NCBI GenBank assembly: GCA_963695335.1
Contig: OY968764.1
Span: forward strand, 32,001 to 96,000
Reading direction: 5' to 3'
DNA length: 64,000 bases
Source of the DNA: an uncultured bacterium
GTDB lineage: Bacteria; Babelota; Babeliae; Babelales; Vermiphilaceae
Shown one piece after another: positions 28,287 to 43,973 of the stretch. Below the pieces are notes generated by a model, which saw only the letters and a program-made list of their open reading frames with translations, made no database searches and was not told the origin of the DNA. A program made the position numbers and the translations under genes. Within the stretch, counting starts at the first letter, position 1, and each line of letters begins with the position of its first letter.

Positions 28287-28673
28287 ATGAAATTTGCTTA
28301 CACCATACTATACGTACAAGACGTAGAATCGACTCTCAATTTTTATATCAAAGCTTTTGAATGTACGTTACGATTTTTGCACGAAAGTAAGACCTATGGT
28401 GAACTTGAAACAGGAAATACGACTCTTGCTTTTGTAAGCGAATCACTTGCAGAAAATAATATAGGTACATTTGAAAAAAATGATCTCAAAAAAAAACCCG
28501 CCGGTTTTGAAATAGCTTTTACTACCGATAATGTGGAGCATGCCTATGAACATGCATTACATTCAGGAGCACAAGCAGTTCACGCGCCGATACAAAAACC
28601 ATGGGGACAATTAGTAGCCTATGTCCGAGATATTAATGGTATTATCATTGAAATATGCAGCCCTTTGTCCTAA
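28287..28673 (+). CDS. VOC/glyoxalase family protein
   Basis: YTILYVQDV..FY..AF, YGEL.TG, KPWGQ.VAYVRD..G..IEI. Confidence 0.9.
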   Translation: MKFAYTILYVQDVESTLNFYIKAFECTLRFLHESKTYGELETGNTTLAFVSESLAENNIGTFEKNDLKKKPAGFEIAFTTDNVEHAYEHALHSGAQAVHAPIQKPWGQLVAYVRDINGIIIEICSPLS

Positions 28674-28679
28674 ATACTT

Positions 28680-28982
28680 ATGCCAAAAAATAAAACAGCT
28701 CTTCATTTAAATGATCTTATGAATATTGGAAAAGCAATGCTCCAAGATCTTCATCTTCTTAATATTCAAAGCATAGAACAATTAGCAAAAATGGATCCAG
28801 ACACGTTATACACAAATCTAGAAGTAATCACTAAAAAGCATCAAGATCCTTGCGTCTGGGATGTCTTTGCTGCTGCAATTCATGAAGCACGCACTGGTCA
28901 AAAATCTCCTTGGTGGAAATGGACCCCCATGCGAAAACAAAAAGAAGCATTACGCCCTTTATGCATCCATAAAAAGAAATAA
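28680..28982 (+). CDS. Helix-hairpin-helix protein, Cdd1/mitomycin-resistance-like family
   Basis: LxDLxNIGKA..DL..L, DPCVWDVF, PWWKWT. Confidence 0.75.
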   Translation: MPKNKTALHLNDLMNIGKAMLQDLHLLNIQSIEQLAKMDPDTLYTNLEVITKKHQDPCVWDVFAAAIHEARTGQKSPWWKWTPMRKQKEALRPLCIHKKK

Positions 28983-29005
28983 CCTGGCATATCACACAAG
29001 CTTTA

Positions 29006-29033
29006 TTGACCATGCCTTTTTTTGTGGTATTCT
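29006..29033 (+). promoter_or_regulatory. Sigma70-like promoter with extended -10
   Basis: TTGACC-16 nt-TATTCT preceded by TGn. Confidence 0.5.
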
Positions 29034-29276
29034 AAAATTAATATTCAATTAATTCCTGGGAAAGGAATCCCAACTATGAAAAGTTTAATTATCTCTAATT
29101 AGTCGTCTAAGCAGTATTATTTATATCTATTAGATGACGTCTTTATGTATTACCTTTTGCGCTTCTTACAGCGTTAAAGGTTATTTCTTAGTATTCCTAT
29201 TTTATTACATACATTCGTAAGGTATAGCTCCATGCATTGGAATAATTATGTATCTCTATTAATGGGATTAAGTATT

Positions 29277-30180
29277 AGATCTCTTTCGATTCTCTGAAAA
29301 ATAGATATATTTAATGGCTAAACTAAAAAAGGGAGGCCATGAAAATAGATCATTTAAAAAAGTTATCTGATGAACAATTTCGCCGGGTAGTAGGTGTAAA
29401 GAGAAACACCTTTGTTTTAATGTCTTATACTTTACATAATGCGCATATAATTAAAAAAGCGAAAGGTGGTCGTCCGAATAAATTAAGTTTAGATACCATG
29501 CTTTTAATGGCATTGGAGTATCTAAGAGAGTATCGAACTTATGCTGCTATTGGAGCTAGTTATGGGTTAAGTGAAAGTAATGCATATCAATCAATTCGAT
29601 GGGTTGAAAATGTACTGATTCAATGTAATGAATTTAAATTGCCTGGCAAAAAAGCTCTTACCAAAAGCGATAATGAATTTGAAGTAATTTTAATCGATGT
29701 AGCTGAAAGTCCAATTGAACGCCCTAAAAAAAACAACGGCAATTTTATTCTGGAAAAAAGAAAAGACATACTGTAAAAACTCAAGTGATTGTTGATAAAG
29801 ATACAGCAGCTATTATTTGTACTAGTTTTACAAATGGAAGAAAACATGACTTTCGTCTTTTCAAAGACTCAGGCGTTCATATAAATCCTGCGATTAACGC
29901 ATTAACTGATACTGGTTATTTAGGATTACAAAAAATTCATTTGAACACTTCTATGCCAAAAAAGAAAAGCAAAAAGCACCCTTTAACAAAGGCTGATAAA
30001 ATTAAAAATCAGGAAATATCAAAAGAACGTGTTTTGAATGAAAATGTTATAGGTAAAATTAAACGTTTCAAAATTGTCGCTGATCGATATCGCAACAGGA
30101 GAAAGCGATTTGGTTTACGTTTCAATTTGATAGCAGGAATATATAATTTTGAGTTAAAAAATTAGTTTCGAAAGAGGTCT
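29277..30180 (+). mobile_element. Insertion sequence, IS5-family (ISL2-like), ~904 bp
   Basis: Terminal IRs AGATCTCTTTCGA / TCGAAAGAGGTCT; flanking ATT (or TA) duplication; two-ORF DDE transposase. Confidence 0.9.
29339..30165 (+). CDS. Transposase, HTH + DDE, two ORFs joined by a -1 shift at the A8 run 29726-29733
   Basis: GGRPNKLS, LEYLREYRTY, IDVAE..IERPKK then QRQFYSGKKKRHTVK in the -1 frame, HDF, DTGYLG, ENVIGKIKRFKI. Confidence 0.88.
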
Positions 30181-30198
30181 ATTATATACTCGATAACT

Positions 30199-31023
30199 AT
30201 GTGTACTGAAAGTATAAAAAAAATGAATAATTCTAAAATATCTCACAATACATTGTCTCAATGGTTAAGTGATGTTAAAGCAGAAACAATTTCAAAAAAA
30301 GCTGGTCAACTCATCACCAATGATGTCTGTGGCTCTCCAGTAAGTATCGATTGGCAAATCACTGATATCCTATCGTCGAATCTTGCTGAATTTAAAAGAA
30401 ATGTGTGCGACTTGGCTGCTAAAGTAACAGCTACGATAGAAATACAATTTTTACATGCATACCCTGAGGCAGTATCTCAAGATGGATTTTTAAAGGCATG
30501 TGAACCTTTATTTGGACATGGGATAGAAAATATTGATTGGCAAGCAGTTGAAAAAACAATACAAACATCAATCAAACAATTTTATCTCATGGATATATCA
30601 AAATTTGGTGCTGACATTGTCGGTAAACTTGCTGATGATGTTTATTTTTTTGCATCAATTAAAGATCAAAAAACAGATAATTTACTTGGATTTATTATCT
30701 GTTCTATTACACCAGCATTGCCATATGGTAATATTAAAGTAATCAATATAGTAATTGCGCCAGAAGGGCAAAATCGTGAATTAGAAAGAATACTGTTGAG
30801 TTCTATTTTTGCTATAATTCCACAAGTACAACGTATATTCATTATTACTCGACCAACCAATAGCACAGCACTAAACGCATACAAAACATGTGGCTTTATA
30901 CAAGATGTAAATCCTATACAAGATCCAAATCATACAATTACAACAGAACATTTTGTTGTGTTTGAATATAAAAGCAATCAATGCAATATACTGCAAAACA
31001 TAGCTGAAACATTTACTGAATAG
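30199..31023 (+). CDS. GNAT-family acetyltransferase, original 5' end (29232-29276) cut off by the IS
   Basis: IVIAPEGQNRELERILL, N..ALNAYKTCGF motifs; in frame with MHWNNYVSLLMGLSI across the IS. Confidence 0.7.
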   Translation: MCTESIKKMNNSKISHNTLSQWLSDVKAETISKKAGQLITNDVCGSPVSIDWQITDILSSNLAEFKRNVCDLAAKVTATIEIQFLHAYPEAVSQDGFLKACEPLFGHGIENIDWQAVEKTIQTSIKQFYLMDISKFGADIVGKLADDVYFFASIKDQKTDNLLGFIICSITPALPYGNIKVINIVIAPEGQNRELERILLSSIFAIIPQVQRIFIITRPTNSTALNAYKTCGFIQDVNPIQDPNHTITTEHFVVFEYKSNQCNILQNIAETFTE

Positions 31024-31084: not shown

Positions 31085-31193
31085 TTATTGCGCCTCAATA
31101 AATAATTCAGGCCCTTTTTTATAAAGCTTATATTCTTGATACATGTACCAAGATAAAAAAAGCCCTGCAATAACCAAAATTTTGTTTTGTCAT
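31085..31193 (-). pseudogene. Frameshifted copy of the small membrane peptide gene at 38025-38147
   Basis: MTKQ then, after a shift, ILVIAGLFLSWYMYQEYKLYKKGPELFIEAQ*; AAAGGT RBS. Confidence 0.6.
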
Positions 31194-31211
31194 AATGATT
31201 ACCTTTCTTTT

Positions 31212-31282
31212 GCGCTCATCCTGCCGTATTCTCCGTAGCCTTTGGCGAAGGATGTAAGCTTGTCGAAGGATTTCCTTGAGCG
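31212..31282. repeat. REP-like palindromic element with nested hairpin
   Basis: GCGCTCATCCTG[...CTCCGTAGCCTTTGGCGAAGGA...]AGCTTGTCGAAGGATTTCCTTGAGCG. Confidence 0.75.
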
Positions 31283-31356
31283 TTATTGTTTTTTATATAT
31301 AAAGTTATATCCTTTCTGGAAGGTCTGGGGAAAAATTTCACTAACGTTTTAAAATT

Positions 31357-31389
31357 AAAAAGCCTCATGTTGTTACGCATGAGGTTTTT
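31357..31389 (-). terminator. Intrinsic terminator
   Basis: AAAAAGCCTCATG/CATGAGGTTTTT. Confidence 0.7.
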
Positions 31390-31412
31390 GCATTGTACAA
31401 ACTTATTTGTAT

Positions 31413-31913
31413 TTATTTTCTAAAAACTTCTTCTTTTGATTTATTATTTTTAGATTGAGTATTTTCAACATATTGTTTAAAAAGAGAACAATATTCTAGA
31501 TTTCGTGTACCAAAAATTACTGCCCCAACATTACACAATTTATCATCATAATCAGGCATTTGTTCAACATCATAACAATATATAGCATTATTCATATTTC
31601 CATGTTCTTTAATCTCTGAAAACTCATCAGAGTCAATAAAATGATGGTTTTTTGCAATTTTATCAAGCGTGCCTATTTCTTTAAATTGCTTATTCTTGAG
31701 CATTACTATTCTTGTATATTTAAATACAGGATCAGGTTGAGAATGCCACCACAGCGCATTCAAACGCCGATGTATGCTATCGCCACCAATATATGTATTC
31801 ATTCCATTCTTGAAAACAAAGTTTTTTGATTCACATGCTTCTAAAATTGTAAATGTAACACTATTCATTGCTATAAAAACTATAAGTCCAAACATCATTT
31901 GTTTTATCATCAT
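31413..31913 (-). CDS. Hypothetical secreted protein, paralog A
   Basis: AAGGA RBS; shares FxEIGTL, MNNAIYC and DYDxKLxxVGAxI with the adjacent gene. Confidence 0.75.
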   Translation of the reverse strand: MMIKQMMFGLIVFIAMNSVTFTILEACESKNFVFKNGMNTYIGGDSIHRRLNALWWHSQPDPVFKYTRIVMLKNKQFKEIGTLDKIAKNHHFIDSDEFSEIKEHGNMNNAIYCYDVEQMPDYDDKLCNVGAVIFGTRNLEYCSLFKQYVENTQSKNNKSKEEVFRK

Positions 31914-31926
31914 TGTGCATCCTTTT

Positions 31927-32493
31927 TTATTTTTTTGTAGCAAGTTTTTGTTGTGCCAAATATTCTCTATAAAAAGCACATCGTTCTAAATTTTGAGTAC
32001 GATAAATTATTGCTCCAACATGATGCAACTTACCGTCGTAATCTGCCACTTGCGCAACGTTAGGACAATAGATAGCATTATTCATCCCTGCATGTTTTTC
32101 AAACTTAGCCACAACCGCTGGCTTATTGGGTGCTTGGCGATTTTTAGCTGATCCACGAGGAATTGCCATATTTCTAATCACCTCTAATTCCCTACTTCTT
32201 TCACGATTACTTTTCTCAAGTGAACCAAGAGTACCAATTTCCTGAAATTCATTATCTTTAGTAAATTCTACTACTTTTGTATCTTTAAACACAGGTGTAG
32301 GTCTTGCTTGTAAACGCTCAAAATTTAAATATGACCACAAATCATTACCCTCAATAACAGTAGGAACTCCACTAAAAAATACAAAATCCTTTTCCAAAGA
32401 AGATGCCACTGCTTCTATAGGACTCTCAGATGGCATACAGCTACCAGTTACCATGAAAATCATACTCATAAACATCATTTGTTTTGTTATCAT
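31927..32493 (-). CDS. Hypothetical secreted protein, paralog B
   Basis: AGGAG RBS; same shared motifs. Confidence 0.75.
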   Translation of the reverse strand: MITKQMMFMSMIFMVTGSCMPSESPIEAVASSLEKDFVFFSGVPTVIEGNDLWSYLNFERLQARPTPVFKDTKVVEFTKDNEFQEIGTLGSLEKSNRERSRELEVIRNMAIPRGSAKNRQAPNKPAVVAKFEKHAGMNNAIYCPNVAQVADYDGKLHHVGAIIYRTQNLERCAFYREYLAQQKLATKK

Positions 32494-32527
32494 TATATAT
32501 CTCCTTTTAACAATTATTATTATTTTA

Positions 32528-33502
32528 CTATTTTGTTGAATCTTCAAGTTTTCTTAAATTCTCTTTTGTCTTTTCTCTCAAATTATCAATTACTGCATCA
32601 TATTCCTTTCTTGATTTTTTCACTTCTTCTGATGCTCCAAGAACCCCATCTCCATGACGTAAATCAAGTCCTCTTACATGATCATATATATGAAGCTGCA
32701 CAATATAATCCTTCAGCTGTTCTATATACTGTTGTTTTAATATCCTATTCTGCTCAAAACCCAACAACATCTGCACAATCATATGCACCGTTGCAAGCGT
32801 CAAACACGCAGCTCCACCAACAACAGCACATGCTACTTTATTTCTTTCAAACCAATTTTTTTTAATTTCATCGCTTTCAATCTGATCTTGCAAAGATTTC
32901 TTCAAAGAAACAGAAACAATATTCTCTCCAAATCGCTCTTTTACATCTTCTGATAATTGCCCTTTATTACATGCAGATGTACCAATCACCAAAACATCTG
33001 GATACTGTCTACATTGATCAATCAGCATCCACAATGTTGATGCAAGTAATCCGGAATAATCTGCCATTTCAGGTAATTCTGTGATAATCAAAGCAAGTGG
33101 TTTACCTCTTTTAATAATAGGACGCACTTCATTAAGTAACATTTGGCGCCCTTCACGATACTCTTTTAAAAGCGCTGACGCTTCGATCACGTAATAATCA
33201 TACCCACAACGTAACGCTATTGATTTTGCAATGGCTGTTGTGCTTGCGTTACTCGTTCCCCCCAATAAAAGCAAAGACTGTGGCGCTGCATCTGCATCAG
33301 ATGGATACAATAAGTCTTTAATGTTTTTTTTCACCGCGGCTGGTGAATGCTTTAACACTTCTTCTACCAAATTTTCATCAAAAGAATCTTCATAACTAAA
33401 CCGACCAATACGCTTGGATTTATCCGCAATCCCATGCTTTTCAGCTTCCGCGTATACTAAAGAACTGATACATACCAATACAGCACATACGTGATGTTTC
33501 AT
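32528..33502 (-). CDS. Signal-peptide AAA+ paralog with degenerate Walker motifs (pseudo-ATPase), C-terminal TM + coiled coil
   Basis: Aligns by eye with 36572-37942 (RIGRFS.ED.FDE, CGYDYY.xEA, LW.LxD.C.QY); Walker A is GGTSNAST, Walker B is IITE. Confidence 0.75.
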   Translation of the reverse strand: MKHHVCAVLVCISSLVYAEAEKHGIADKSKRIGRFSYEDSFDENLVEEVLKHSPAAVKKNIKDLLYPSDADAAPQSLLLLGGTSNASTTAIAKSIALRCGYDYYVIEASALLKEYREGRQMLLNEVRPIIKRGKPLALIITELPEMADYSGLLASTLWMLIDQCRQYPDVLVIGTSACNKGQLSEDVKERFGENIVSVSLKKSLQDQIESDEIKKNWFERNKVACAVVGGAACLTLATVHMIVQMLLGFEQNRILKQQYIEQLKDYIVQLHIYDHVRGLDLRHGDGVLGASEEVKKSRKEYDAVIDNLREKTKENLRKLEDSTK

Positions 33503-33519
33503 AAAAAATCCTAAAAAAC

Positions 33520-33900
33520 TTATTCTGTTGTTTCTATAATAAATTGATCATTCTGATGCTTAATAACTACTTCTTTTGATTTTTTCTTACATACTTTTTC
33601 CTCCCAATCCGTAAGTATTTGTACAAACTGCTCTCGTGTCATTTTTAATACAGTTGGTATCTCTTCTTCTGAAAACAAATCTGTTAATAATATATAACCA
33701 TTTTCTTTTTCCAATGCCGTCAAGTTGCTACATGTATATTGTTCATTGTCATTGAGTGCATACTCTATAAAAGAGGATGGATAATAACGAGCATCACAGG
33801 CTAAAAAATTTCCAAGAATATTCATTTCTATATTGGATGCATCATCATAGGCATAACCACTGAAAGGCAACTCATTGCGTATTAATTTAATAAATTCCAT
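33520..33900 (-). CDS. Small acidic cytoplasmic protein, putative orphan immunity protein
   Basis: 126 aa, no signal peptide; ATG directly abuts the stop of a toxin-tip remnant. Confidence 0.55.
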   Translation of the reverse strand: MEFIKLIRNELPFSGYAYDDASNIEMNILGNFLACDARYYPSSFIEYALNDNEQYTCSNLTALEKENGYILLTDLFSEEEIPTVLKMTREQFVQILTDWEEKVCKKKSKEVVIKHQNDQFIIETTE

Positions 33901-33942
33901 CTATATTCCTGTTTTCACAATTGGATAAGCTGTAATTTTAGC
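33901..33942 (-). pseudogene. Remnant of a toxin C-terminus (AKITAYPIVKTGI*)
   Basis: ITAYP resembles the C-terminal motif of bacterial EndoU-type toxin tips; located immediately before an immunity-like gene. Confidence 0.5.
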
Positions 33943-33962
33943 TTATCTTTCATGTCTCTTCT

Positions 33963-34292
33963 TTAAAAACTGTATTCTCCACTTTTTATTTTTGGAAAAT
34001 AATATTTTTTTGCTTCTTCGAAATTATCAAAATCTCTCACAAATCGGAATAATTGCTCCGGAAGATTAATATCTTCTTCACAAACTAAAGACATTAAACT
34101 TCTCTGAATTTTATCTAAAACCATAAAATACCAATTAGCTTGTTCCATGGTTTCACACATTTTTATTTGAGAAAATATATACCGAACATTTTGATGCAAT
34201 AAAATTAATCTTTGATTTAAATGTTTTCCAAATTCGTTAATTTGATTTAAATCTTTTTCTATTTCACTTAAAGAAATAAACAAATCTTCCAT
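33963..34292 (-). CDS. Small helical cytoplasmic protein, putative cognate immunity protein
   Basis: Starts 12 nt after the toxin stop with AAAGGA RBS; no signal peptide. Confidence 0.55.
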   Translation of the reverse strand: MEDLFISLSEIEKDLNQINEFGKHLNQRLILLHQNVRYIFSQIKMCETMEQANWYFMVLDKIQRSLMSLVCEEDINLPEQLFRFVRDFDNFEEAKKYYFPKIKSGEYSF

Positions 34293-34304
34293 AATCAATT
34301 TCCT

Positions 34305-36527
34305 TTATACAAGTTTCTGTTTAGATTTAGATATTGGAGATAAATGAGCTACCACTTTTGTAGATGGATTAAAAATCATTTCCCAATCATTATGTATATA
34401 CTTAAAAAAACCTTCATACCCTCGCGGATCTGGCACAATAGTTGTAGCTCCCCGCAGTACTGACTCTGCCCTAAAGCCAGGACATCTTCTTCCATTATTC
34501 CAAAGTTTATCATAATAAAATTGAGTAAACTTAAATCCATTAACTTCATAATAAGTCTCTTTTAAAGCACCACTAATATTATCTTTAGCTGCTGCAGCAA
34601 TTTTAGCGTTAGCACTTTCCATCTTCTCCATCAAGCAAGCAACTTCTTCAGCGCATCGTACTGGCACACCTTCAGCAGTCACAGCAACTTCTGCAGATTC
34701 TCCGCCTTTACGCATACAACTTACAAAGGTTGGTAAACTTTCTGTGGTAATCGCAGATACCACTTTGGTTACACCATGCAGCAACATCATATCAACAACT
34801 GCTTTTGTACCAACACGCGCAACATCTTCCGTTACATTATTTTTCTGCGCATATTCGTAAATAGCTACTAACGTTTGAGGATCTATCGCGTATTGCCCTA
34901 TCATCTGTTCATATTGCTTTGGATCTGTTTCTAAAAGATCTGTTGCTGCTTCTAAGACACAACTTGCGTACGCAAGTTTACCCAAACAATACCCTGCAAC
35001 AACAAATGATTGCACCACATCTTGTGCCGCTTCAACAGGATGACACACTGCATGCACTGCACCATGTAATGATTCACACACACCATCGCATGCTCCTTTT
35101 GCAATCAGTGGTACATGCGTTGATAATGCTGAATACGTATACTGCGCAGCGTCTTTGGCAAAATCAATTAACGACCAACATGCATCGAGCGTGCGTGATG
35201 CCATCACAACATCACCATTTTTATTTAAACTCAATGATGCATTTGCAAAATCAACAACTGCACCTTGCATATTTCCAACCAAATCACCACTCACAACAGC
35301 ATCAACAACTGTAATTGCTTCATCAACCAAATGGTGTTGTAGATGATTACCGTCAAGCAGTATTCCTTTACGATCTGACGTCAAATGATCTGCAGCAAGA
35401 TAATTCGCCTGTAACGCATTAACTTTGTGAATTTGTTTAACAGATTGTGAGTTAATAATTGTACGTGTAGCAGCATCATAACGCTGTTGCACCGTATCAA
35501 AATGTGATTTTTGTAAAATGTGATTTGTACATTCTGATTGCACAACCGCAGCTTTTTGTTGCGCTTCTTTTTCTTGCCTGTCCTTCGTAGCTTTAGCGGA
35601 GTAGGGAGCAAGGCGCTTTTGCTCCATGTTTGCATTATAAGCATTATGCGCCTGCTCAACTTTTTGCCGCAACGCAGGATAGTGCTCAAAAACTGATGTT
35701 GTATCAACTTTTTTTCCAATCAATCTTCTTGATACAACCGTTGTAACAGATTCATTACCTACAGTACGTGCTTTTTCAATATCACCTTCATGCAATGCTT
35801 TATACACAGTGCCAAGATTACTATGCACCGATGCTGCACTACGCAATTCTTTATCCCTCATACTGCTTTCAACATTATGCCCATCATAATACTTCCAATT
35901 AATATCTGACTTTACTTGCTGCATCAAAGGATTATTTTTCGTACAATCATCATACAAACGCTGGGCAGAACCTGGATAAAATTCTTTCAAAAAATTGGCA
36001 TACGCATGTATCAATGCAATTTGATCTTTACAAGAAAGATTCTCACAAAAACTATTATTTGCACCATTAAACAAAATAGTTTCCATGCGTGTGCAATATG
36101 TTTCCAAACGATCAGTAAATCTTGGTATCAGTAATGCATCTGATGATATAAATTGAGATAAATCATGTAAGCACTGACGCAAACCATGAGAAAAAATATA
36201 TCCCGGTAATGCACAGTAATGCTCAGCAATAGCGCTATAATACATAAGCGGTGTCACAACATTACCAAAGTATTGTTGTAATTGTGGCGATGCTTGATAT
36301 AAAAGAGGATTGCAATAAATTGGAACTTTTGTAGCAGAATAATCAGGAATTGTTATCACGTTTGCTGAAAAGTGCCTGTTATGTGATGATTGTGCATTTT
36401 GATCAACATGCACTTCAACATGCGGCAGATTATTTTTATTATTTGCATCGCATGAAAATTCATAAGAAAATAGAGCGCAGCATTGCATCAATATAGCGCT
36501 TACAAGAAAACTATTTTTTAACTTCAC
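34305..36527 (-). CDS. Secreted 740-aa protein, putative polymorphic toxin
   Basis: GTG start, signal peptide, hydrophobic/Ala-Gly-rich helical pre-toxin region, linker AVTAEGVPV, distinct ~85-aa tip ending WEMIFNPSTKVVAHLSP, followed by small ORFs. Confidence 0.65.
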   Translation of the reverse strand: MKLKNSFLVSAILMQCCALFSYEFSCDANNKNNLPHVEVHVDQNAQSSHNRHFSANVITIPDYSATKVPIYCNPLLYQASPQLQQYFGNVVTPLMYYSAIAEHYCALPGYIFSHGLRQCLHDLSQFISSDALLIPRFTDRLETYCTRMETILFNGANNSFCENLSCKDQIALIHAYANFLKEFYPGSAQRLYDDCTKNNPLMQQVKSDINWKYYDGHNVESSMRDKELRSAASVHSNLGTVYKALHEGDIEKARTVGNESVTTVVSRRLIGKKVDTTSVFEHYPALRQKVEQAHNAYNANMEQKRLAPYSAKATKDRQEKEAQQKAAVVQSECTNHILQKSHFDTVQQRYDAATRTIINSQSVKQIHKVNALQANYLAADHLTSDRKGILLDGNHLQHHLVDEAITVVDAVVSGDLVGNMQGAVVDFANASLSLNKNGDVVMASRTLDACWSLIDFAKDAAQYTYSALSTHVPLIAKGACDGVCESLHGAVHAVCHPVEAAQDVVQSFVVAGYCLGKLAYASCVLEAATDLLETDPKQYEQMIGQYAIDPQTLVAIYEYAQKNNVTEDVARVGTKAVVDMMLLHGVTKVVSAITTESLPTFVSCMRKGGESAEVAVTAEGVPVRCAEEVACLMEKMESANAKIAAAAKDNISGALKETYYEVNGFKFTQFYYDKLWNNGRRCPGFRAESVLRGATTIVPDPRGYEGFFKYIHNDWEMIFNPSTKVVAHLSPISKSKQKLV
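35577..35606. repeat. 30-nt palindromic element inserted in frame in the toxin gene
   Basis: CCTGTCCTTCGTAGCTTTAGCGGAGTAGGG encodes PYSAKATKDR; related to the nested hairpins near 31225, 45346 and 54721. Confidence 0.7.
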
Positions 36528-36571
36528 TTTTTTTTGCTTTCTTTTTCACTCAAAAAAATTATTTTTATTCA

Positions 36572-37942
36572 TTAATCCCAGCCTCTATCCTTAGTCTTCC
36601 TATTACTCATAGCTTGCGATACTTGAACTGCAGTTGAAAGCATAGCAAGTTTTGCTGAGTCTTTTTGGACAGCATGAGATTGTTGATGCGCTTGTTTTTG
36701 AAATTCAAATGCATCTTTTTGACAATCTAATCCATCTTTTTGGTAACCTAATCCTGTCTGTTGAAGTACATATGATAATTTCTGCAACATAAGTGATTCA
36801 TCAGAATTTTTCTTCTGCCATGATGCAACATACATAGAATGAATCAACCCAATCGTTTGTAAAATAATAGGGAATGCCGTTTTAAAGAATGGCTGCAGAT
36901 GTGGTTCAATTTTTTCATAAATAATCACAGGGTGATAAAAAGATTTCCACAGCGCAAGCGCTCTTTCAAAATCTTTACATGTCACAGTATAACGCCGCGG
37001 AGTTCGGACATTGGCAAATTGTATTGCTTTACATACCAATTTTTCAATTTCTCGCGCAGATCTACCGCCAGTTTTTTTAACAAGATAATCCAAAAACTTT
37101 GCATCAATTGCATGCCGTTCATCTTTTAAAAAATGTTGTAACATACGCTTACGTGCAACACTGTTGGGCATATCAATCGTGATAATATCTTCATCAAAAC
37201 GGCTTTGCAGTTGTGCTGGTAAATCTTTTTTTGATTTGTTGGATGTACCAATAAAAAAAACGTTATCATACTGAGCACATGAATCTAATAAAATCCACAA
37301 CGCAGCAGCAACGGTAGCATCAGAATCATTCTCTTTTTTATATTTATCAGTTAATTCCGTCAGCTCATCAAGAATAACAACCACCTTTTTGCCAGATTCC
37401 AAAAGAGGATATATTTCCCGTAACAAATTTTGCGGACCAGAATTTTTATATTCATTCAACAAAAAAGGCGCTTCAACAATGTAATAATCATACCCACATT
37501 TAATTGCAATCGCTTTTGCAAGCGTTGTTTTTCCTGTGCCAGGTTTGCCCACAAGCAAAAGCCGCTTGGGTAAAGCGGCTTTGTTTTTAGGAGGATACAA
37601 TAAGTTTATAATAATTTTTTTAATTGCAGCAGGAGCCGCCGCAAGTGCATTATTCACACAATCTTCATCAAAACAATCTTCATCGCTGAAGCGCCCAATT
37701 CTTTGGTAATTAACACCACCATTGTTATAGATATTATTTTGATATGACATATTATCAGGAACATGCAAAGGGCTAAATCCGTATGGCGCCTGAGAAATAT
37801 ACTCCTGTGAGGAAAAATAATCTAATGCAGATTTAAAAAGTGTAACATCAACAACATTATCATCTGTGCAAGGTTGTTCATCTTGAGCAAAAAAACAAAA
37901 ATAACTACAGAATATAAAAATAAGAGAGGTATATTTCTTCAT
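36572..37942 (-). CDS. AAA+ ATPase (classic AAA clade) with N-terminal signal peptide and C-terminal hydrophobic/coiled-coil tail
   Basis: Walker A GKPGTGKT, pore loop LLNEYKNSG, Walker B VILDE, SRH GTSN...LQSRF, lid MPNSVAR...GGRSAREIEKL. Confidence 0.9.
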   Translation of the reverse strand: MKKYTSLIFIFCSYFCFFAQDEQPCTDDNVVDVTLFKSALDYFSSQEYISQAPYGFSPLHVPDNMSYQNNIYNNGGVNYQRIGRFSDEDCFDEDCVNNALAAAPAAIKKIIINLLYPPKNKAALPKRLLLVGKPGTGKTTLAKAIAIKCGYDYYIVEAPFLLNEYKNSGPQNLLREIYPLLESGKKVVVILDELTELTDKYKKENDSDATVAAALWILLDSCAQYDNVFFIGTSNKSKKDLPAQLQSRFDEDIITIDMPNSVARKRMLQHFLKDERHAIDAKFLDYLVKKTGGRSAREIEKLVCKAIQFANVRTPRRYTVTCKDFERALALWKSFYHPVIIYEKIEPHLQPFFKTAFPIILQTIGLIHSMYVASWQKKNSDESLMLQKLSYVLQQTGLGYQKDGLDCQKDAFEFQKQAHQQSHAVQKDSAKLAMLSTAVQVSQAMSNRKTKDRGWD

Positions 37943-38024
37943 TGCATACTTTCACTTTTGTGATCAAATTCACACTAGTATACTATAAAAAAACAACCTC
38001 TCAATTAAAAATTAAAGTATAATT

Positions 38025-38147
38025 TTATTCTGCTTCAATAAAAAATTTGAAACCATTGTGATATTGCTTATATTCTTGATACATGTACCACACTAAAAAT
38101 ATCCCTACAACAACCAAAAATATTGTTACAAAAGATTGCTTTGTCAT
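38025..38147 (-). CDS. 40-aa single-TM peptide
   Basis: MTKQSFVTIFLVVVGIFLVWYMYQEYKQYHNGFKFFIEAE*, GGGGGA RBS, paralog at 31085-31193. Confidence 0.6.
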   Translation of the reverse strand: MTKQSFVTIFLVVVGIFLVWYMYQEYKQYHNGFKFFIEAE

Positions 38148-38164: not shown

Positions 38165-40090
38165 TTACTTAAAAGCTTCTTCCATTTCTAATTCAACCAA
38201 CAGCTCTTCACACGCTTTATATGCAACAGAATTTTTTTCAAACTTCTGCATTGCATCTTTAACTGCTTTTACTTTTTCATCATGTTTTTTTTCATATACA
38301 CCCCATATAAGTGATGTATGATAAAACAGTGATGATCGCAACTCTTTTATTTTTTGTTGTATCTCGTTTTCAACAATATCCCCAAACAATTCAAATGGAA
38401 GGAATATTTTAACAACCTGCTGCACATCAGCAGGTAATGTTATAAATATTTGATAATCAAGATCTTTAACATCTAATACCACCGGCACATTATTAATTTT
38501 TGCCAAGTATAAACGATACAACAAACGTGCTTGCGCAATGTTCAATTGTTTTGCGATGGTATGAAGCGTTTCTTTCTCAATTAATTTAAACAACATAAGA
38601 CCATCGCTACCTCCACATAAAAGTGAATGCCCATCGGGACTAAAAGCTACACAATGTACATCATACATACCATCAAATTTTTTAATCGATTTGCCTGTCT
38701 TACAATCAAACATCAATATCTTAACATACTGATCATGGCTTCTGGTGTACCCCACAACTATATAATCATTTGATGGATGAAATGCTACACATGTTATACG
38801 ACCTTCAGTTACAAATTTTTTTACTTTATCACCCGTTTCAGCATTCCACAAAATTAATTCCAAAGTGCCTCCAACCAGATGTTTACCATCAGTGCTGAAT
38901 GCTATACAAGGTGTTCCGTCATCCAACCCCACAAATGGCCTTATTTTTTTGTATGTTTTACAATCATAAAGAACCACATTCTGTAATATAGGAAAGTTTG
39001 TTACTACAACGACATCATCACTATATGGCCTACAAGCTACACACCTCATATCTTCTACATAATCTTCAAATGAACCTTTTAATCTATCAAACCGAATACT
39101 TTTCTCTTTATATGTTGAAACTGTTTTACCTGTCTTTACATCATATAAAATAGGTTTATAACTATGCCGAAACCATGATCCAGCAAGAATAGAATTGCCA
39201 TCAGAACTAAATGTTACACAACTCACCGGTCTACCTTCACCAAATATTCTGATCCGTTCACCAGTGATGGCATCAAACAAAATAAGAGTATCAAACGCTC
39301 TGTATGCACCCGCAACAACATAGTTACCATCAGGGCTAAATGTCACACAAGGCTCTGGAAAAGATATTTCAACCAAGTTTTTTATAACCTTACGATTTTT
39401 AAAATCATACAAAATAAGATTATGATCAATACCTGCCGCTGCAGAAATGATACGATTGCCATCAGGACTAAATGCCACCTGTCTCACCATTCCTTTGTGA
39501 GGGAGAGCAATTTTTTCTGGATTTTGCAAATATGCAACAACCGGAGCAATAATGCCCGCTTGCTGCAACACGGTTGCCCCCATCTGTTGTTGCACTTCTA
39601 TGGGAAACATATAGGTCATGAGTAATGATGCTAAACCTTGCATTTCTAAAGTAAATGCATCTGCAAGGAGAGATTTTTGTTGAGGCCCAGATAATGAAAT
39701 ATAAAACTCTCGAAATATTTTCAGATTGCTGGCTTTATGCAAAGCTTCTTGAAGTAATGCCAGTTGTTTACTCGTTATCATTGATACATTAATTGGATTA
39801 TCTTTGCTATTGCTACCCTTTTGATGCACAAAAAAGACCTGCAACACTTTTGATTGATCAATCTGCCATTGTGGCACTTCTAACAACATTCCATCAGATG
39901 TTTGTACCCACACAATATCACTTTTATAACGCGCGGACTGTTCTTGTGTTTGTAACACGGGAGCTCCACGGCGACGGCTCTTTAAGGTAAACTTGAATGG
40001 TTCCATGCAATGCAACAAAACACCAAACCATAATACTGATAACAAAACAGCTGCCCCAACCGCAGCACTTAACTTCTTTGTATGCTTCAT
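38165..40090 (-). CDS. Secreted Skp1/POZ-like + WD40 repeat protein (divergent repeats)
   Basis: GGGGGT RBS, signal peptide, [11 protein letters not shown]...QSKVL...LEMQGL, repeated VAFSPDG/ILYD. Confidence 0.85.
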   Translation of the reverse strand: MKHTKKLSAAVGAAVLLSVLWFGVLLHCMEPFKFTLKSRRRGAPVLQTQEQSARYKSDIVWVQTSDGMLLEVPQWQIDQSKVLQVFFVHQKGSNSKDNPINVSMITSKQLALLQEALHKASNLKIFREFYISLSGPQQKSLLADAFTLEMQGLASLLMTYMFPIEVQQQMGATVLQQAGIIAPVVAYLQNPEKIALPHKGMVRQVAFSPDGNRIISAAAGIDHNLILYDFKNRKVIKNLVEISFPEPCVTFSPDGNYVVAGAYRAFDTLILFDAITGERIRIFGEGRPVSCVTFSSDGNSILAGSWFRHSYKPILYDVKTGKTVSTYKEKSIRFDRLKGSFEDYVEDMRCVACRPYSDDVVVVTNFPILQNVVLYDCKTYKKIRPFVGLDDGTPCIAFSTDGKHLVGGTLELILWNAETGDKVKKFVTEGRITCVAFHPSNDYIVVGYTRSHDQYVKILMFDCKTGKSIKKFDGMYDVHCVAFSPDGHSLLCGGSDGLMLFKLIEKETLHTIAKQLNIAQARLLYRLYLAKINNVPVVLDVKDLDYQIFITLPADVQQVVKIFLPFELFGDIVENEIQQKIKELRSSLFYHTSLIWGVYEKKHDEKVKAVKDAMQKFEKNSVAYKACEELLVELEMEEAFK

Positions 40091-40109
40091 TCCTACCCCC
40101 CTAATTATT

Positions 40110-41936
40110 TCATACTTCAAAAGCTGCTTCTATCTCTAATTCAGTCAACAATCTTTCACATGCTTTATATGTAACAGAATTTTTATCTAAATCTTGCATA
40201 ACAATCTTGAGCGTCTTTATTTTATCATCAGGTGTTGCATCAGTTTTAATAAATTTTAAGCGATACTCATTCATTTTCTCTTGAATTTGTTTTTCAATAA
40301 TATCTGATGCTAATTCAAATGGCAGAAATACTTTAATGACCTTTTGCACATCGGTAGGCAACGTAAGATACAATTGATAATCAAGATCTTTTGGATCTAA
40401 TATCACTGGTACATTATTAATTTTTGCTAAATAAAGACGATATAAAAAGCGTGCTTGTGCAATATTCAAGTTATTTGCTATATAACTAAGCGCTTGAGGA
40501 TCAATGAATTTCCATAAAATTAAGTTGGCACCTAGCAATCCTGCAACTATATGACGACCATCAGGACTCCATGCTACACAAGCCACACTACTGCTACACT
40601 TTTTAAAAATCTCTATTTTTTTACCAGTTTTACCATCCCATAGAATTAAATGCTCGTCATATGATCCTGATATTATATAATTACCATCAGGACTATATGC
40701 CACACCCTTTACAACAAAAGTATGTCCTTTAAGAGTTTCTATTTTTTTTCTAGTCTTACTATTCCATAAAGTCAAATTATAAACAGCCGCTCCTGAAACT
40801 ATATAATTACCATCAGGACTATATGCTACACAATAAACCTGACCAGCATTACCTTCAAAAGTTTCTATTTCTTCACCAGTCTTACCATTCCATAAAATCA
40901 AATTATGAGTCGACCCTGAAACTATATAATTACCATCAGGACTGTATGCTACACAACGCACCTCATCAATATGTCCTTGAAGAAGCTTTATCTGCTCACC
41001 AGTCTTACTATTCCATAAAATCAAATTATGATCAGCCGATCCTGAAACTATATGATTACCATCAGGACTATATGCCGTGCAAAGTACCGGTCCAGTATGT
41101 CCCTCAAGAGTTTTGATTTTTTCACCAGTCTTACCATTCCATAAAATCAAATTATGATCAGTCGACCCTGAAACTATATAATTACCATCAGGACTGTATG
41201 CTACACAACGCACCTCATCAGTATGTCCTTGAAGAAGCTTTATCTGCTCACCAATCTTACTATTCCATAAAATCAAATTATGATCAGCCGATCCTGAAAC
41301 TATATAATTACCATCAGGACTATATGCCACACAAAAGACATTGTCTTTATGTCCTTTAAGACTTTGATCTTTTTTTAGATCTTTTTTTAAATATTCAACC
41401 ACTGGCGCAATAATACCCGAAGCTTGCTCAACAGCTGCTCCCATCTGTTGTTGCAGTTCTGCGGGAAACATATAACTCATTATTAATGATGCTAAACCTT
41501 GCATTTCCAAGGTAAATGCATCTGCAAGGAGAGATTTTTGTTGAGGCCCAGATAATGAAATATAAAATTCTCGAAATATTTTAAGATTACTTGCCTTACG
41601 CAAAGCCTCTTGAAGTAGCGCCAATTGTTTACTCGTGATCATCGATGCATTAATTGGCTTATCTTTGCTATTGCCACCTTTTTGATGCACAAAAAAGAGT
41701 TGCAGAACTTTTGACTGATCAATCTGCCACTGTGGAACTTCTAGCAACATTCCATCAGATGTTTTTACCCATACAATATCACTTTTGTAGCGCGGCTCAG
41801 ATTGAATGGGTTGTACGCGAATGCGCTTGGATGTTGATTTTTCAGAAATCATTGTATTGATTGGTGTGACCATATACAAAAGAGCTGCCAAAACAACTCC
41901 ACCAACACATGCTTGAAATCTTTTATTATCATTCAT
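40110..41936 (-). CDS. Secreted Skp1/POZ-like + 7 WD40 repeats
   Basis: Seven [22 protein letters not shown]...LILWN units. Confidence 0.9.
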
Positions 41937-41960
41937 TTCTACCGCCCCCTTTAAAAATTG

Positions 41961-43787
41961 TCATACTTCAAACGCTGCTTCTCTTTCTAATTCAATCAAC
42001 AATCTGTCGCAAGCTTTATAATCAACAGAATTTTTATCCAAATCTTTCATCAAAATCTTAACTGTTTTAATTATGTCAGCAATTGTTGCATCAGTTTTAA
42101 TAAATTTTAAGCGATACTCATTCATTTTCTCTTGAATCTGTTTTTCAATAATATCTGATGCTAATTCAAATGGCAGAAATACTTTAATGACCTTTTGCAC
42201 ATCAGTAGGCAATGTAAGATACAATTGATAATCAAGATCTTTTAAATCTAATATCACTGGTACATTATTAATTTTTGCTAAATAAATACGATATAAAAAG
42301 CGTGCTTGTGCAATATTCAAGTTATTTGCTATATAACTAAGCGCTTGAGGATCAATAAAATTCCATAAAATTAAATTGTCACCTAGCAATCCTGCAACTA
42401 TATGATAACCATCAGGACTCCATGCCACACAAGCCACACTCCTGCTACACTTTTTAAAAATCTCTATTTTTTTACCAGTTTTACCATCCCATAGAATTAA
42501 ATGCTCGTCATATGATCCTGATATTATATAATTACCATCAGGACTATATGCCACACCCTTTATAACAAAAGTATGTCCTTTAAGAGTTTCTATTTTTTTT
42601 CTAGTCTTACTATTCCATAAAATCAAATTATGATTAGCCGCTCCTGAAACTATATAATTACCATCAGGACTATACGCTACACAATAAACCTGACCAGCAT
42701 TACCTTCAAAAGTTTCTATTTCTTCACCAGTCTTACCATTCCATAAAATCAAATTATTCGACCCTGAAACTATATAATTACCATCGGGACTATATACAAC
42801 ACAACGCACCTCATTAGTATGTCCTTTAAGAATCTTAATCTTTTCACCAGTCTTACCATTCCATAAAATCAAATTATTCGACCCTGAAACTATATAATTA
42901 CCATCGGGACTATATGCAACACAACCTACCTCATGAGTATGTCCTTGAAGAATCTTGATCTTTTCACCAGTCTTACCATTCCATAAAATCAAATTATGAT
43001 CAGCCGACCCTGAAACTATATAATTACCATCAGGACTATATGCCACACAAAAGACACTCTTTTTATGTCCTTGAAGAATCTTAATCTTTTCACCAGTCTT
43101 ACCATTCCATAAAGTCAAATTATGATCAGCCGACCCTGAAACTATATAATTACCATCAGGACTATATGCCACACAAAAGACATTCCCTTTATGTCCTTTA
43201 AGAATTTGATCTTTTTTTAGATCTTTTTTTAAATATTCAACCACTGGCGCAATAATGCCAGAAGCTTGCTTAACAGTTGCTCCTATCTGCTGTTGCAGTT
43301 CTTTTGGAAAGAAATACCCCATCAATAAAGATATTAAACCTTGCATTTCCAACTTTGATGCACTATTAATAAGATTTTCTTTTTGATCTTCTGGAAGGCC
43401 AGCATAAAATTCTCTAAAATCTTCAAGATTATTGGTGAGATTTAAAGCCTTTTGCACTAACGCTAGCTCATCACTTGTTATCATTGATGCATCAATGGGA
43501 TTATCTTTGCTATTACTACCTTTTTGATGCACAAACATAATCTGCAACACCTTTGACTGATTAATTTGCCACTGTGGAATTTCTAGTAACATTTCATCAG
43601 ATGTCTCTACCCATAGAACTTCATTTTTATATTGATCTGATGTGCTTTCTGTATCCTGTACAGAAGAAGGCAAGAAAGGTTCTGGCTCACGAAGTCGCTT
43701 CATTGTATTAACTGGCATAACCATGTACAAAAGAGCTGCCAAAACAACTCCACCAACACATGCTTGAAATCTTTTACTATACTTCAT
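41961..43787 (-). CDS. Secreted Skp1/POZ-like + 7 WD40 repeats (close paralog)
   Basis: As above; C-terminal half nearly identical in DNA to 40110-41936. Confidence 0.9.
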   Translation of the reverse strand: MKYSKRFQACVGGVVLAALLYMVMPVNTMKRLREPEPFLPSSVQDTESTSDQYKNEVLWVETSDEMLLEIPQWQINQSKVLQIMFVHQKGSNSKDNPIDASMITSDELALVQKALNLTNNLEDFREFYAGLPEDQKENLINSASKLEMQGLISLLMGYFFPKELQQQIGATVKQASGIIAPVVEYLKKDLKKDQILKGHKGNVFCVAYSPDGNYIVSGSADHNLTLWNGKTGEKIKILQGHKKSVFCVAYSPDGNYIVSGSADHNLILWNGKTGEKIKILQGHTHEVGCVAYSPDGNYIVSGSNNLILWNGKTGEKIKILKGHTNEVRCVVYSPDGNYIVSGSNNLILWNGKTGEEIETFEGNAGQVYCVAYSPDGNYIVSGAANHNLILWNSKTRKKIETLKGHTFVIKGVAYSPDGNYIISGSYDEHLILWDGKTGKKIEIFKKCSRSVACVAWSPDGYHIVAGLLGDNLILWNFIDPQALSYIANNLNIAQARFLYRIYLAKINNVPVILDLKDLDYQLYLTLPTDVQKVIKVFLPFELASDIIEKQIQEKMNEYRLKFIKTDATIADIIKTVKILMKDLDKNSVDYKACDRLLIELEREAAFEV

Positions 43788-43973
43788 TATATTTTCCCCC
43801 ATATTTGTAAAAACCCTATAAATCCAGAGTATTAAAATTACAATTAAAAAATAAAGAGTTTGCTTGTTTCATCTCTTGCGTCTGCATTTTTATTCTGTTA
43901 AGCTATTGGTGTTTATCGTTTATACCTTATAAACGGTGTTGGAAATCTGTTTATTTTTACTAAAGTGATGTCT

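Follow-up and report, generated by a model that had tools for sequence, protein, structure and literature searches.

A candidate polymorphic toxin locus of Babelota with linked AAA+ ATPase genes

The locus and its toxin carrier

Our study describes a group of genes on contig OY968764.1 of a Candidatus Babeliales (Dependentiae) bacterium, whose genome (G000) is a single contig of 1.37 Mb with 35.7% GC and is 94% complete. The window, by which we mean the whole stretch of 64,000 nucleotides (nt) that was analysed, corresponds to G000:C1:32001-96000, and loci fetched from relatives carry L-numbers (e.g., L031). Babelota, or Dependentiae, are presented as residents inside protists in two publications (PMC12172432, PMC6561590). 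A first-pass annotation, made from the sequence alone, had proposed a toxin system at window positions 31085-38147, and every part of it was found there, all on the minus strand: a peptide of 40 amino acids (aa) with a single transmembrane (TM) segment, the AAA+ ATPase AAA1, a 740-aa putative toxin, the small gene IMM1, the scar of a toxin tip, a second small gene (IMM2), the AAA paralogue AAA2, two small secreted proteins (SEC1 and SEC2), and a broken copy of the TM peptide. The named relatives of the locus proteins all belong to Candidatus Babeliales or Dependentiae, the closest being 72-80% identical.

The 740-aa protein (34305..36527) consists of a signal-like peptide, an N-domain particular to its subfamily (residues ~73-310), a pre-toxin core that is predicted to be helical and recurs across the phylum (residues 372-622; 34662..35414), and a C-terminal tip (residues 652-740; 34305..34574). 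Signal peptides were judged throughout from sequence and hydropathy, which is a crude test. No Pfam or NCBIfam match was obtained for this protein, in agreement with the earlier view that its N-terminus shows no recognizable RHS, CdiA, LXG, MafB, VgrG, or PAAR motif; the pre-toxin region, which had been called hydrophobic, proved only moderately so (best 19-residue windows 1.49 and 1.44). A homology search of 1.84 billion representatives returned 294 matches. Six near full-length homologues align with the protein up to residue ~640-652 and then differ, two of them having EndoU at the C-terminus, and one other keeps the G000 tip; closer homologues, with core identity of up to 90%, carry EndoU or RNase-A-like ends. 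The part that stays constant in close homologues comprises residues ~12-650, followed by EndoU, RNase-A-like, or other tips. Homologues of residues ~20-650 thus show C-termini that vary rather than an invariant end, with small genes downstream, as predicted for a polymorphic toxin, and on this comparison we take the 740-aa gene to be a true polymorphic toxin on a previously unlisted carrier. A model of the full-length protein has a mean pLDDT of 45, and its best fold match (Z 7.9) is to generic helices.

The pre-toxin core has no Pfam or PDB sequence match. A 235-position profile of this ~250-aa segment gave 278 matches in 111 of the 251 genomes of the phylum, with up to 12 per genome. From 150 listed regions around core matches, 80 were fetched, best first and with long contigs favoured; it should be noted that the choice was made with the AAA list already known, and a slight bias is possible. 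These 80 regions hold 93 toxins, 81 of which are followed by a small co-oriented gene. The tip scan, which left out truncated or duplicate candidates and covered 135 of 146, identified EndoU, RNase A-like, Ntox17, Ntox21, Ntox35, and colicin D types, and the 146 candidates form 43 clusters, a few of them non-toxins. One Pfam-less cluster, with an HE-x-x-E motif and a later His, is present on seven carriers that are mostly AAA-linked (L132, L136, L138, L163, L166, L176, and L178). A comparison of carrier-module profiles yielded a weak match of the core to module X3 (probability 53%) and no others. Alignment of the toxin against general genome and viral contigs gave no confirmed locus; the wide core and AAA alignments were too divergent for pattern scans, so this negative is of limited reach outside Babelota.

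G000 itself has five such toxin loci, one of them split by insertion sequences. At G000:C1:510436-519771, two active AAAs accompany a carrier of the ~1000-aa type that is split by two insertion sequences and ends in an EndoU tip; an orphan piece of carrier and a paralogue of IMM2 (67%) are present too. At G000:C1:805949-815433, a family toxin and its immunity gene lie inside what looks by sequence like a tolQ/R/A-tolB cluster adjoining ftsH, a setting of interest since colicins enter cells via Tol and FtsH.

The tRNase-like tip and the immunity genes

The tip was modelled at a pLDDT of 89.6, and CdiA-CT of E. coli NC101 (PDB 5I4Q chain A) matches this model with a Foldseek E of 2.3e-8, a TM-score of 0.80, and 42% identity. 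Structural comparison with 5I4Q gave a Z of 13.5 and a root-mean-square deviation of 1.8 over 80 residues (next match Z 6.9), and the tip profile matches the same toxin at E 4e-35. The expectation of a BECR-fold RNase in the last ~90 aa was therefore borne out. Residues R680, H728, E716, and Y672 of the tip correspond to R200, H248, E236, and Y192 of CdiA-CT NC101, the equivalences being taken from the offset of the structural alignment. According to Michalska et al. (2017, PMC5737660), the NC101 toxin acts together with EF-Tu to cut the 3' ends of tRNA and depends on Arg200, His248, and Tyr192; its Gln250, replaced by Ser730 in our tip, is described there as dispensable. Both systems share the fold of the tip, the catalytic Arg and His, the EF-Tu-contact Tyr, and a homologous immunity protein, whereas the carrier is a filamentous CdiA in NC101 and a Sec-type Babelota protein here. 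RHS and PT-HINT proteins can end in the same tip as well (8 of the 44 scanned). Homology and modelling together place it, as we read them, in the CdiA-CT NC101 family of BECR tRNases.

IMM1 (33963..34298) is assigned as the cognate immunity protein by profile match and synteny: CdiI NC101 (5i4q_B) is the only clear match of its profile (E 1.9e-6), and in each of 14 distinct loci with the tip, an IMM1-type gene comes next. A single-sequence comparison with the PDB returned chance coiled-coil matches only, so that the profile was needed to reach CdiI. Tip and IMM1 correspond in this way to both chains of 5I4Q, in line with the cognate immunity gene postulated at the outset. The scar (33901..33939) holds the final ~12 codons of a displaced EndoU tip: it aligns with the ends of the EndoU tips of L035, L036, and G000:512076, and it abuts IMM2 as those ends do. 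IMM2 (33520..33900) belongs to a family that has no Pfam or PDB match, but IMM2-like genes follow 26 of 27 Pfam-EndoU tips versus 2 of 96 other tips, which led us to reject IMM2 as a second immunity gene for the current tip. Since the scar aligns with EndoU tips and IMM2 is associated with them, we conclude that the locus held an EndoU tip earlier, which was replaced by the current tip and IMM1; the scar and second immunity-like gene of the first-pass annotation are accordingly relics of that tip and its orphaned protection. We regard the toxin and immunity part of the explanation as almost certain. Four loci (L083, L091, L098, and L119) have long arrays of small genes 3' of the toxin, with up to six consecutive IMM2-like copies.

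The immunity genes also bear on the question of the target. The tips could be aimed at the mitochondria of the protist or at food bacteria instead of rival Babelota, immunity then serving only against self-poisoning. Mitochondria have and use an EF-Tu homologue. In Chromulinavorax, moreover, the host mitochondrion wraps the bacterium, which sheds putative vesicles, as stated in PMC6561590. Orphan immunity genes (IMM2 and the arrays in L083, L091, and L119), however, are useful only if neighbours deliver the corresponding tips, and the spread of the 146 candidates over 43 tip clusters is in keeping with an arms race among kin, so we consider a mitochondrial or food-bacterial target improbable.

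AAA genes and their linkage to toxins

AAA1 (36572..37942; 456 aa; Pfam AAA E 1.5e-19) has a signal-like N-terminus, a Walker A motif at 132, the Walker B DE at 192-193, an Arg finger at 248, an aromatic pore loop, and a sensor-1 Asn; C-terminal to the AAA module there is a moderately hydrophobic helix and then a Q-rich, coiled-coil-like tail. Its nearest solved relatives are VAT, p97, and Cdc48, and its best NCBIfam models are PAN and CDC48, all far below cut-offs; judged by its residues, AAA1 is an ATPase of the classic-clade unfoldase type (CDC48/PAN/FtsH type). AAA2 (32528..33502) is 44% identical to AAA1. It has lost Walker A and the Asp of Walker B, and a TM-like helix stands where the helical lid would be. 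The contrast drawn in the first-pass annotation between an intact AAA and a paralogue with dead Walker motifs is thus correct. AAA2 is under purifying selection, with dN/dS values of 0.13 and 0.16 (0.09-0.10 for AAA1), and a decaying pseudogene was rejected on these values. Among the 108 members of the AAA family, a hydrophobic N-terminus is found in 98 (background 252/433), the strict Walker A pattern in 98, and a hydrophobic segment after the AAA module in 55 (background 43/252); the pore-loop aromatic and Walker motifs are kept family-wide.

The order AAA1-toxin-immunity is found again, with different tips, in L031, L033, and L180, so the AAA genes are syntenic with toxin homologues elsewhere; L038, too, has AAA1 upstream. 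In L031, L034, and L180, AAA2 comes after the immunity genes. The lists of AAA1 and toxin homologues apparently have eight contigs in common, as inferred from their sizes, three of them too short for much else. Two counts address the linkage. First, on the toxin side, 88 toxins have at least 2 kb of upstream sequence (5 of the 93 were dropped for short context): a family AAA lies within two genes upstream in 12 of them and within 5 kb in 20. Where the core begins no earlier than residue 350, an upstream AAA accompanies 7 of 10 toxins, versus 5 of the 78 others, related toxins not being independent. Second, the AAA-side search, with 6 candidates scored per genome, gave matches in 47 of 251 genomes, which were grouped by hand into 72 clusters outside G000: one of these was set aside, 11 belonged to regions retrieved before (each of them no more than 5 kb from a toxin), and the other 60 were fetched. 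In 30 of the 60 loci picked by their AAA, a co-oriented toxin lies directly downstream, and in 11 more it lies within 5 kb (41/60), while the chance level in G000 is 8 of 1213 genes (0.7%) for the directly downstream position and 52 of 1213 for within 5 kb or directly. The co-occurrence proposed for AAA genes and toxins is therefore well above chance, and the 30 directly linked loci are spread over 24 genomes, which represent 16 genera and 4 families; all four family AAAs of G000 are in toxin loci.

Many AAA-linked toxins have other carrier modules, weakly related to the core, so this family of AAAs goes with more than one type of carrier. In the AAA tree, grouping follows largely the carrier type and not the genome: AAA1 stands apart from the two other active AAAs of G000, which cluster with AAAs of the same carrier type from other genera. 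That carrier type has a tandem AAA pair in fixed order, made of two old sub-clades, only one of which has the C-terminal hydrophobic helix. Our study concludes that the link between AAA and toxin is real and not obligatory, and that a functional tie of the AAAs to the toxins is probable.

Several observations weigh against giving the AAAs a general role in delivery. In the close homologues L036 and L037 the carrier is the same and no AAA adjoins it, and 76 of the 88 toxins have none directly upstream. By the automatic test, 19 of the 60 AAA loci have no toxin; on inspection about 13 of these stand alone, 2 are cases of a missed toxin, and several are truncated where the contig ends. Kinship between the genomes also means that they are not independent cases, and genes that are linked diverge together even when they share no function. 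Signal-like N-termini are common in G000, where 494 of 1213 open reading frames pass the crude test, and PMC6561590 gives a signal peptide for 44% of Chromulinavorax proteins, so the signal peptide may be a general export tag. The commonest two-AAA arrangement, finally, has intact Walker motifs in both copies, which does not favour a hetero-oligomer of active and inactive subunits.

The same observations could be accommodated if the AAAs were independent host-directed effectors of p97 type that share conflict islands with the toxins, the latter leaving via Sec plus a secretin or vesicles. The scarcity of toxins with an adjoining AAA, the existence of stand-alone, AAA-ankyrin, and long fused copies, and the VCP/Cdc48 identity of the nearest solved sequences of AAA1 all fit this explanation, as does the finding on the Neisseria MafB system in PMC4287609 that deletion of mafA did not stop MafB secretion. 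We nevertheless judge it unlikely: the position and orientation of the AAA genes are stereotyped across the genera and families listed above, and the AAA clades track carrier type, with all G000 copies in toxin loci.

Another explanation would make the AAAs protective, as membrane-anchored extractases that remove incoming or mis-inserted carriers and so confer tip-independent immunity, the dead copy acting as a decoy or poison subunit. AAA2 is conserved and sits after the immunity array, AAA genes are found downstream of toxins in L092, L100, and L108, degenerate AAA copies stand beside active ones in five unrelated loci (L065, L092, L100, L167, and L177), and stand-alone AAA genes could be orphan defence genes. 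The usual position of the AAA, however, is upstream of the toxin, the place of trafficking genes in other polymorphic systems as given in Table 1 of PMC3482391, and tip-specific immunity is already provided by the small gene behind most toxins, which leaves a protective role with quite a low probability.

Other AAA genes were recorded in the course of the survey. A 519-aa signal-bearing AAA protein at G000:C1:143500-145059, ATAD3-like in appearance, groups with the L096 AAA outside the main family, and two tandem FtsH-like paralogues with signal-like N-termini are located near a toxin at L052:12069-14699. Long AAA fusions occur at L129:2863-5547, L158:5845-10365, L169:5388-8639, and L175:5699-9226, one with ankyrin repeats and the others of 1083-1506 aa; three are beside toxins, divergently transcribed. 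Membrane-like proteins of 176-198 aa lie directly 3' of the AAA gene at L137:7983, L161:8193, L173:7878, and L168:1655, in three cases between AAA and toxin, and include two related pairs.

Relation to known systems, proposed delivery, and neighbouring genes

The locus shares with the Sec-dependent polymorphic toxins, as treated by Zhang et al. (2012, PMC3482391), the signal peptide, the constant N-terminal part, the variable nuclease tips, and the immunity gene with orphan cassettes downstream; the table of that survey names no signature neighbour for the Sec class, whereas an AAA family is a frequent neighbour here. Its layout appears closest to mafA-mafB-mafI of Neisseria, where Jamet et al. 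(2015, PMC4287609) describe a lineage-restricted signal-peptide carrier without repeats, a variable tip, an immunity gene, and an upstream accessory gene in some classes only. That accessory gene is the lipoprotein MafA in Neisseria and an AAA+ ATPase in our case; the MafB domain DUF1020 (PF06255) was not matched in the 740-aa protein or in 26 core members, and a language-model lead to MafB was weak (0.87, 98 shared features).

For contact-dependent inhibition (CDI), no Pfam or NCBIfam match to the TPS domain or to filamentous haemagglutinin repeats was found on the 740-aa protein, and no CdiB/TpsB gene adjoins the locus; PF03865 is unmatched in G000, but the control genomes gave no match to it either. 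Type VI secretion (T6SS) and phage-type sheath models (PF05943, PF04984) and VirB10 were not found in G000, which is 94% complete, with positive sheath controls, and Pfam detects no PAAR, VgrG, or RHS domain on the toxin. By the features tested, the locus therefore appears to be neither CDI, MafB, T6SS, nor Photorhabdus virulence cassette (PVC). PMC3482391 ties AAA ATPases to T6SS and PVC, and ClpV of T6SS and the CDC48-like ATPase of PVC and extracellular contractile injection systems resemble our case in being AAA+ proteins encoded with a toxin delivery system, the PVC protein being CDC48-like as well. Those ATPases act in the cytoplasm on phage-tail machines, whereas the one in G000 begins with a signal-like stretch and carries a hydrophobic helix towards its C-terminus. 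A literature search, mostly of open-access texts, found no description of these toxins or of their AAA link, and the words toxin and AAA are absent from the main text of two Babelota genome papers (one of them PMC6561590). On these comparisons we count the locus among the polymorphic toxins and among the NC101 tRNases, with a real chance that its delivery mechanism is new. Two functional analogies to AAA1 can be drawn. In Plasmodium, HSP101 of PTEX is a signal-peptide-exported AAA+ motor of an intracellular parasite that threads cargo across a membrane, and FtsH acts as an AAA+ threading motor in the import of nuclease colicins.

The computations show that tips are swapped, which tip and immunity genes are present, how the genes are linked, which motifs survive, and how selection acts; these results are best explained, with somewhat better than even confidence, by a Babelota polymorphic-toxin locus that serves competition between bacteria in a shared protist host, with the AAA as accessory. 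As regards the export, site of action, and substrate of the AAA and the organism targeted, we infer the following from sequence. The toxin would enter the Sec pathway through its signal peptide, the helical pre-toxin core would take the tip across membranes, and the tip, by homology to the tested NC101 toxin, would cut EF-Tu-bound tRNA 3' ends in the cytoplasm of the rival, while IMM1 would shield the producer and IMM2 would keep protection against the earlier EndoU tip. The AAA would serve only some of the toxins, chiefly those whose N-terminal region is long, as a dedicated accessory; in the likeliest case it would be exported by Sec, held at a membrane by its C-terminal helix, and use host-derived ATP outside the bacterial cytoplasm (in the periplasm or host cytosol), unfolding or threading the carrier during export or delivery, with AAA2 as a non-catalytic partner or regulator. 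G000 has two genes of the ATP/ADP-translocase family and two secretins, and an exported AAA motor, which needs ATP outside the cytoplasm, would be feasible because an energy parasite taking up ATP from its host would necessarily find ATP in its periplasm and surroundings. A complex prediction for carrier residues 25-640 with AAA1 residues 60-430 scored 0.00, which is evidence neither way. As far as computation reaches, none of the three outcomes named in the first-pass annotation as refuting its proposal was seen. From that annotation, then, the synteny of the AAA genes stands, and the export, the delivery role, and the active/inactive hetero-oligomer stay at the level of proposals. We put the specific AAA delivery role slightly below even chance. 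A more tentative suggestion is a new delivery route in which ATP-importing intracellular bacteria export a classic AAA+ unfoldase to where host ATP can be had beyond the cytoplasm, as a membrane-anchored motor that loads or threads toxins, singly, in pairs, or with a pseudo-ATPase partner, against rival bacteria in the same protist.

If the AAA acts outside the cytoplasm, energy parasitism would have enabled an ATP-driven machine in a normally ATP-free compartment and a new way of delivering polymorphic toxins. More generally, the sequences show a large arsenal against other bacteria in a phylum whose members are reduced and obligately intracellular parasites, with dozens of tip types, many having no Pfam name. 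It follows that co-infection is frequent, and superinfection exclusion within protists becomes open to test; the loci also supply many tip-immunity pairs for the discovery of new nucleases.

The remaining features frame the unit. The 40-aa TM peptide (38025..38147) is kept 5' of AAA1 in relatives, with homologues of 43-44% identity in L031 and L033. SEC1 (31927..32493), a small secreted protein that has no family name and lies 3' of AAA2 in relatives, has just 3 homologues, all unnamed, and is 34% identical to its tandem paralogue SEC2 (31413..31913). A terminator-like hairpin (31363..31384), recognized by consensus match only, would close the unit. Beyond it lies the frameshifted second TM-peptide copy (31085..31198), a 96-nt direct repeat at 78%; it was looked for in L031, L033, and L034 and not found, so that it is probably a local duplication relic, and it was rejected as a member of the conserved unit. 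Promoter-like sites are no commoner than chance (28 vs 34.6), and among sequencing runs no RNA holder is listed, while one DNA run covered just three short pieces.

Outside the unit, a short repeat element at 31200-31285 has about two dozen copies genome-wide. An IS5-like transposase (two open reading frames), GNAT, Cdd1, and one further small gene at 28287-31023 separate the locus from a 478-aa gene; in L031 and L034 that gene comes immediately after the locus, so this block is a local insertion. Directly upstream of the locus, at 38165-43802, are three tandem signal-peptide WD40 proteins, of which L031 and L033 have a single copy in the same place.

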